Of a stretch of DNA of 64,000 bases, positions 44,858 to 45,025 are shown in pieces. The first letter of the stretch is position 1; each line of letters opens with the position of its first letter. The notes beneath the pieces were generated by a model. That model had not been told where the DNA came from and searched no databases. It saw only the letters and a program-made list of their open reading frames with translations. This DNA comes from Escherichia coli (lineage in GTDB: Bacteria > Pseudomonadota > Gammaproteobacteria > Enterobacterales > Enterobacteriaceae). Where the stretch lies: NCBI RefSeq assembly GCF_003334335.1, contig NZ_QOWQ01000022.1; one strand, written 5' to 3'. The translations under genes and the position numbers were made by a program.

Positions 44858-45025
44858 ATGAAGAGACAAAAACGAGATCGCCTGGAACGGGCACATCAAC
44901 GTGGTTATCAGGCCGGCATCGCCGGACGCTCAAAAGAAATGTGTCCCTATCAGACGCTGAATCAAAGGTCACAATGGCTGGGAGGCTGGCGAGAAGCCAT
45001 GGCGGACAGGGTAGTAATGGCCTGA
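44858..45025 (+). CDS. rmf: ribosome modulation factor (55 aa; below the ORF-track size cutoff)
   Basis: Manual translation from ATG 44858: MKRQKRDRLERAHQRGYQAGIAGRSKEMCPYQTLNQRSQWLGGWREAMADRVVMA, stop TGA 45023-45025. Confidence 0.92.
   Translation: MKRQKRDRLERAHQRGYQAGIAGRSKEMCPYQTLNQRSQWLGGWREAMADRVVMA

Follow-up and report, generated by a model that had tools for sequence, protein, structure and literature searches.

Identification of the small rmf gene in an Escherichia coli contig and evidence for nucleotide-level constraint on its transcript

In the literature, the ribosome modulation factor, RMF, is described as a small basic protein made when growth stops. It binds the 30S subunit beside the anti-Shine-Dalgarno sequence, blocking mRNA recruitment, and causes 70S ribosomes to pair into 90S dimers, from which HPF produces inactive, storable 100S particles; upon a nutrient upshift RMF leaves, and the ribosomes are reused. 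This hibernation cycle, from 70S to 90S to 100S and back, has been described for RMF and HPF (PMC8778775, PMC8126665, PMC10746276). RMF is mainly found in Gammaproteobacteria (PMC8778775, PMC8126665). As ribosome hibernation supports stress tolerance and persistence, rmf is to be regarded as a key survival gene.

Expression of the gene is controlled at several levels. Transcription is ppGpp-dependent, with modulation by cAMP-CRP and by a number of stress regulators (PMC8778775, PMC6134199, PMC7177335, PMC10746276), while the influence of CsrA is indirect and exerted at the transcriptional level (PMC10746276). Polyamines stimulate translation by way of a structured 5' UTR featuring an unusually placed Shine-Dalgarno sequence (PMC7177335), and in stationary phase the mRNA has an exceptionally long lifetime (PMC8778775, PMC7509114).

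In this work, we analyzed a stretch of E. coli DNA of 64,000 nucleotides, referred to as the window, and specifically the region 44858-45025 (+ strand), which the initial annotation had proposed to encode Rmf by translation from the ATG at 44858. The region runs from ATG to TGA, contains 55 codons plus the stop, and its product, MKRQKRDRLERAHQRGYQAGIAGRSKEMCPYQTLNQRSQWLGGWREAMADRVVMA, is 55 residues long. Comparison of this translation with Rmf gave a full match, with no gap and no mismatch: all 55 residues are identical to those of the deposited E. coli protein, as in PDB 6H4N chain v (55/55, E=2.7e-34), and likewise in 6H58, 9IOT and 4V8G_AV (55/55, E ~3e-34). All these chains are named 'Ribosome modulation factor' and come, ribosome-bound, from solved structures of the E. 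coli 100S ribosome. Family profiles agree: the NCBIfam equivalog NF011162 matches with 92.1 bits against a cutoff of 40 (E=1.4e-26, profile positions 1-47 of 47), and Pfam RMF, PF04957, with E=1.9e-22 (model positions 1-52 of 53). The proposed reading was thus borne out, RefSeq placing rmf at the corresponding coordinates.

The product is small and strongly basic, with 12 Lys/Arg versus 5 Asp/Glu in 55 residues. A mutational study of RMF names fourteen residues, from R3 to M48 (PMC8126665), and all of them, R3, K5, E10, R11, A12, I21, G23, C29, P30, T33, W40, W44, R45 and M48, are present at those positions. Nine, R3, K5, R11, G23, C29, P30, W40, W44 and R45, are, according to mutagenesis, required for binding to the ribosome or for dimerisation (PMC8126665); the window Rmf has them all, and most are invariant in an alignment of six Rmf sequences. 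Judging from its identity with the characterised protein, the window Rmf would be expected, together with HPF, to convert 70S ribosomes into 90S and 100S particles; the hpf gene itself lies outside the window.

The genomic context is equally well defined. The RefSeq rmf entry, WP_000828648.1, has the same coordinates in the seven E. coli genomes inspected, including K-12 MG1655, O157:H7 and four other diverse strains, and in the best-matching genome the annotated rmf CDS maps exactly onto window positions 44858-45025. A 501-bp query around rmf was present in all 5426 complete E. coli genomes (5426/5426), the RefSeq features beneath it being pqiC, rmf and fabA. A wider set, composed of 80 loci encoding Rmf relatives in other Enterobacterales, keeps in most cases the order pqiB-pqiC-rmf-fabA(-): pqiC lies upstream of rmf in 77 loci, and fabA is found within 3 kb downstream in 72. 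We consider it virtually certain that 44858-45025 (+) is the chromosomal rmf gene of E. coli, which forms a monocistronic unit flanked by the pqiABC operon and by fabA, the latter in convergent orientation. No evidence contrary to this identification was found; the identity of the gene is textbook knowledge, and there is nothing new in the gene itself.

Within the E. coli complete-genome collection, four matches to the rmf region fall on records classed as plasmids. A single genome out of 5426, that of strain ET245, carries an rmf CDS less than 99% identical to the window; an in-frame 6-nt deletion (window 44912-44923), within a GCCGG...GCCGG repeat, results in a 53-residue Rmf, where AGIAG becomes G--AG.

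A striking feature of the locus is the conservation of its nucleotide sequence. In 5425 of the 5426 E. coli genomes, identity of the rmf CDS to the window is 99% or more, and in 28 out of 30 evenly spaced ranks it is 100.0%. Neighboring pieces of equal length behave quite differently, the last 168 nt of pqiC reaching at least 99% in only 9 genomes, and the last 168 nt of fabA in only 468. Similarly, seven diverse E. coli strains show no variable site in 44803-45073, corresponding to the transcript, versus 10 variable sites in the 200 nt of the upstream flank (44603-44802) and 3 substitution sites in the 21 nt of the downstream one (45074-45094).

To compare species, synonymous change was expressed as the number of changed codons among those encoding a conserved, degenerate amino acid, about 46-49 of which are informative in rmf, and evaluated by Fisher tests. 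Against E. albertii, no codon out of 49 is changed in rmf, versus 42/159 in fabA (p=3e-6) and 246/678 in pqiB and pqiC taken together (p=1e-9). Corresponding figures for Salmonella are 6/46, 66/160 (p=4e-4) and 307/616 (p=8e-7), and for Citrobacter 3-6/46, 53-58/157-159 (p from 8e-5 to 9e-3) and 293-300/612-622 (p from 3e-7 to 2e-6). Synonymous divergence of rmf is therefore zero with respect to E. albertii, and 3-6 times below that of fabA with respect to Salmonella and Citrobacter; the effect fades by Klebsiella and Kosakonia. Synonymous constraint on rmf is observed; selection on mRNA structure is its likely cause.

The low synonymous change might, in principle, also derive from recent horizontal spread, from gene conversion of a single allele, or from chance in a gene of just 55 codons. 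The gene is indeed short, with its 46-49 informative codons, and the near-uniformity of the CDS within E. coli (99% identity or more in 5425 of 5426 genomes) is something a sweep could also produce. However, conservation is patchy over a few nucleotides: when E. coli, Salmonella and Citrobacter are compared, the promoter spacer, the loop in the 5' UTR and the terminator loop have diverged, whereas nearby third codon positions have not. Recent transfer is unlikely precisely because such neutral-looking positions, lying a few bases away, have diverged. Moreover, the genes flanking rmf on either side show normal divergence, distant genera keep identical codons, including the rare AGA, CGA and AGG, and the difference from fabA is significant in Fisher tests (p=3e-6 for E. 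albertii, p=4e-4 for Salmonella). Overall, we hold an explanation of this kind to be improbable, and selection acting on the mRNA remains the preferred one.

Selection for optimal codons was also considered and rejected as the cause, since 6 out of 9 rmf arginine codons are of rare types, versus a background of 21% across the window's long ORFs (p=0.004). These rare codons are kept across genera, AGA at R3 in 78 of 79 sequences, CGA at R45 in 74 of 80 and AGG at R51 in 71 of 75. Dual coding was rejected as well as a source of synonymous constraint, both other reading frames found over the locus, one on each strand, being broken across genera.

The first of these frames bears on how the gene came to be overlooked. 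The initial annotation had noted that rmf is absent from the supplied ORF list, falling below its 60-residue cutoff, and that the list shows in its place an overlapping, out-of-frame ORF of 65 residues. Both observations are correct: at 60 residues, 44842..45039 (+) is the only ORF listed over 44700-45090, while the 55-residue ORF appears when the cutoff is lowered to 20 residues. It could be argued that the longer frame, 44842-45039 (+), is the real gene and the Rmf-like frame incidental, as no other ORF over the locus reaches 60 residues, and most relatives retain its ATG, at -16. This ATG, however, belongs to the invariant block ATGAGGGAAAC containing the first Shine-Dalgarno element of rmf (SD1), and no Shine-Dalgarno sequence could be read upstream of it. 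Neither NCBIfam nor Pfam gives a match to the 65-residue ORF, even with permissive thresholds, and its frame is closed in many other genera of Enterobacterales by stops at codons 11, 14, 28, 30, 39, 43, 53 or 55. Finally, substitution periodicity follows the rmf frame and not the longer one: over the 80 Enterobacterales loci, differences from the window at rmf codon positions 1, 2 and 3 number 417, 277 and 1252, and this skew toward the third position indicates that the rmf frame is translated. The diversity within E. coli was uninformative in this respect, the CDS being invariant in the seven strains compared, and it was the other genera that settled the frame. We therefore conclude that 44842-45039 is not a gene, the opposite reading having practically no chance of being correct.

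Equally negligible is the hypothesis that the 55-residue antisense ORF 44805-44972 (-), starting with GTG, is a second coding gene, dual coding thus explaining the synonymous constraint: although present in the window and open in Escherichia and Citrobacter, it has no NCBIfam match, it has lost its start codon and contains stops at codons 2-17 in most other genera, and it stays open in the former two only because rmf DNA hardly changes there.

With rmf established as the translated frame, the locus illustrates that an ORF cutoff of 60 residues drops real and important small genes, and may put longer, out-of-frame artefacts in their place. In this respect, rmf represents a clean positive control for the failure of length filters in genome scans.

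The rmf gene is flanked by terminators on both sides and thus forms a separate transcription unit. Its upstream boundary is the pqiC terminator, identified by scanning as a hairpin followed by a T-run at 44623-44660 (+ strand, hairpin 44623-44653; fold -20.4 kcal/mol, z = -5.97). Downstream, a bidirectional intrinsic terminator at 45043-45074 serves both rmf (+) and fabA (-): it is formed by an 11-bp stem, GAAACCTCCGC/GCGGAGGTTTC (45043-45067), with the loop ATT and U-rich tails on both strands, is matched by the scan on both strands, folds with z = -5.46 (+) and -4.20 (-), and shows compensatory changes at 3 pairs across genera.

A putative sigma-70 promoter can be proposed on the + strand from the pattern of conservation, with TTGACG at 44758-44763 as the -35 box and TATTGC at 44781-44786 as the -10 box, separated by a 17-bp spacer. 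When the upstream regions of 27 genera/species are aligned, both TTGAC and TATT prove conserved, in contrast to the intervening 17 bp, which have diverged to saturation. A scan of 44550-45150 for the sigma-70 consensus found no promoter. The predicted -10 box implies a transcription start near 44793; a single RpoD-dependent start has been reported at -58 (PMC6134199), corresponding to about 44800, that is 7 nt downstream, and the two values conflict. As for CRP, a search for TGTGA-N6-TCACA with up to 3 mismatches gave 180 matches over the entire window, below the mean of 231 obtained by shuffling, and did not locate the published box; the sole CRP-like match within the pqiC-rmf spacer, at 44679-44694, has 3 mismatches.

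In one E. coli strain, 350, an IS3-family element, IS1203, is inserted in the pqiC-rmf spacer at about window 44736, some 20 bp upstream of the putative -35 box. The insertion interrupts a block conserved across genera, and the regulation of rmf might be altered in this strain.

Both the scan for terminator-like structures and folding identified an inverted repeat, GTGATTGC-N7-GTAATCAC, at 44793-44815 (+), located at the transcript 5' end or overlapping it. Within 56 Enterobacteriaceae sequences, compensatory changes were found at 3 of the 7 pairs of this hairpin, in 21, 3 and 1 sequences, respectively; one base pair occurs as A-U and as G-C in 21 sequences each. The stem accommodates many G.U pairs on the + strand, and A.C mismatches are few. 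Should transcription start near 44793, this covarying hairpin would form the 5' terminus of the mRNA.

The remaining part of the leader is occupied by the ribosome-binding region. Two Shine-Dalgarno-like elements can be read at 44844-44856 (+), GAGGG at 44844-44848 and GAGG at 44853-44856; they correspond to the SD1 and SD2 elements described in rmf mRNA (PMC7177335), and the block ATGAGGGAAACGAGGC is invariant in the 56 Enterobacteriaceae sequences. A stem-loop spanning 44816-44858 (+) is predicted, where the U-rich tract UGUUUUCUUUUCC (44816-44828) pairs with the SD region and with the A of the AUG, forming RNAalifold helices 2 and 3. Its counterpart in the literature is the -41..-1 structure, which was examined by NMR as the polyamine-responsive element (PMC7177335). 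In the 56 sequences its pairs are all invariant or nearly so, hence no covariation test is possible for them. Searching 43500-46500 against Rfam 15 revealed no family in the rmf 5' UTR at E<=1, the Pseudomonas rmf motif being an example of those looked for; the only matches near rmf are sub-threshold, leader-like and fall on the terminator, and none at the locus reaches the gathering score. Direct control by CsrA through the GGA-rich leader was considered and rejected, as CsrA acts transcriptionally and leader fusions are unaffected (PMC10746276).

A further conserved element is found in the 3' UTR, where GTCTCTTTA, at 45030-45038 (+), is invariant in 56/56 Enterobacteriaceae sequences, whereas the sequence on either side of it and its spacing from the terminator are variable. 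The octamer TGTCTCTT (45029-45036), just past the stop codon, is the exact reverse complement of AAGAGACA (44861-44868), located in codons 2-4. The corresponding duplex has an energy of -13.2 kcal/mol, reached by 6 out of 2000 shuffles of the 3' spacer, and the minimum-energy fold of the whole mRNA pairs codons 2-4 with the 3'-UTR element (z = -3.59). Both sides of this long-range helix never vary in the 56 sequences, so covariation cannot test it. Other lineages show varied arrangements: one of them (L067, L070) does not contain GUCUCUU, and features instead a perfect 9-nt complement to codons 5-8 (0/300 shuffles); Dickeya has a 7-nt complement to -7..-1 in its 3' spacer (p=0.04); in Erwinia, Pantoea and Pectobacterium, the 3' spacer has no significant perfect complementarity to the initiation region.

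These observations suggest, tentatively, that the rmf transcript is selected as an RNA beyond its coding function and the known polyamine-responsive stem, with the 5' hairpin and a helix between GAAGAGAC (44860-44867) and GUCUCUUU (45030-45037) locking the ends of the mRNA. Such an end-to-end helix offers a plausible explanation for the synonymous constraint, unproven and, in our estimate, somewhat doubtful. If real, end-locking would account for the extreme stability of the mRNA in stationary phase, or for gated translation, for the conserved rare codons (AGA, CGA, CGG, AGG, GGA), and for synonymous divergence being close to zero within Escherichia, Salmonella and Citrobacter. A closing helix of this type may have already been described in older work on rmf mRNA stability (Aiso et al. 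2005).

Irrespective of the structure involved, few stretches of the neighborhood are as conserved in nucleotide sequence as the rmf mRNA, despite its poor codon usage, and this points to RNA-level constraints which can be tested. There may also be a consequence for evolutionary analyses: a 2025 preprint inferred relaxed selection on hibernation factors from dN/dS, and a depressed dS in rmf would inflate this ratio, so that claims of relaxed selection would be affected as far as rmf is concerned.

Other features of the window deserve a brief mention. Only the 3' 61 nt of the serT tRNA-Ser gene remain, at 60779-60839 (-), and ARAGORN finds no tRNA in the window. Beside this remnant lie genes for a tyrosine integrase (60981-62000, -), a DUF4224 protein (61978-62220, -) and an exonuclease (62288-63970, -), and the region 60779-64000 resembles the terminal part of a prophage that has inserted into serT. 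A query covering 60700-64000, which starts in chromosomal DNA, is found over at least 80% of its length in 718 of 5426 E. coli genomes, the best matches being O55:H7 and related strains. The gene for the fimbrial usher, elfC, is represented by two separate ORFs, 28867-30234 and 30273-30959, and falls about 508 bp short of the 2601 bp of the intact gene in the comparison genome; in this strain it is probably a deletion pseudogene. An element matching the Rfam ES036 sRNA (53 bits) was detected at 14047-14089; the comparison genome NZ_AP019856.1 carries an IS621 inserted inside it, at about window 14085, while the window has no IS there. Upstream of pyrD, the Rfam PyrD leader, an ordinary known element, is found at 33843-33916 (97.9 bits).

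The closest known system is, as expected, Rmf of E. coli K-12 (6H4N chain v, 4V8G chain AV, WP_000828648.1): the protein is the same over 55/55 residues, it occupies the same position between pqiC and fabA, and the CDS is identical to that of K-12 MG1655. No difference from K-12 is found in the gene itself, and the window departs from it at five positions of the pqiC-rmf spacer, 44628, 44668, 44679, 44743 and 44779. Rmf of Vibrio parahaemolyticus, solved by NMR (PDB 2JRM), belongs to the same family and aligns over residues 1-50 (E=4.1e-19); it adopts a two-helix fold (PMC8778775). In contrast to the window protein, it has 65 residues and its C-terminal tail differs; it is an orthologue from another order.

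Similarity becomes much weaker with the CrpP and Rmf-like fold proteins of integrative elements and phages (NF033696, NF041887, NF041856), which share the fold; membership in these families was rejected, the respective scores being 19.8, 24.1 and 13.4 bits against cutoffs of 55, 40 and 35, and the window Rmf being a chromosomal core gene. In most other bacteria, the same outcome as with RMF, an inactive 100S dimer, is obtained by the long HPF (PMC8126665). This protein is unrelated to RMF, and its own C-terminal domain bridges the dimer, whereas RMF acts together with a short HPF.

At the RNA level, the comparison is with stable bacterial mRNAs such as ompA, which are protected by a 5'-terminal stem-loop. 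The stability of ompA mRNA is mentioned in PMC7509114. Like ompA, rmf mRNA is reported to be unusually stable and features a hairpin, in this case a covarying one, at or near its 5' end; unlike ompA, whether the rmf hairpin is transcribed in full depends on the start site, 44793 or 44800.
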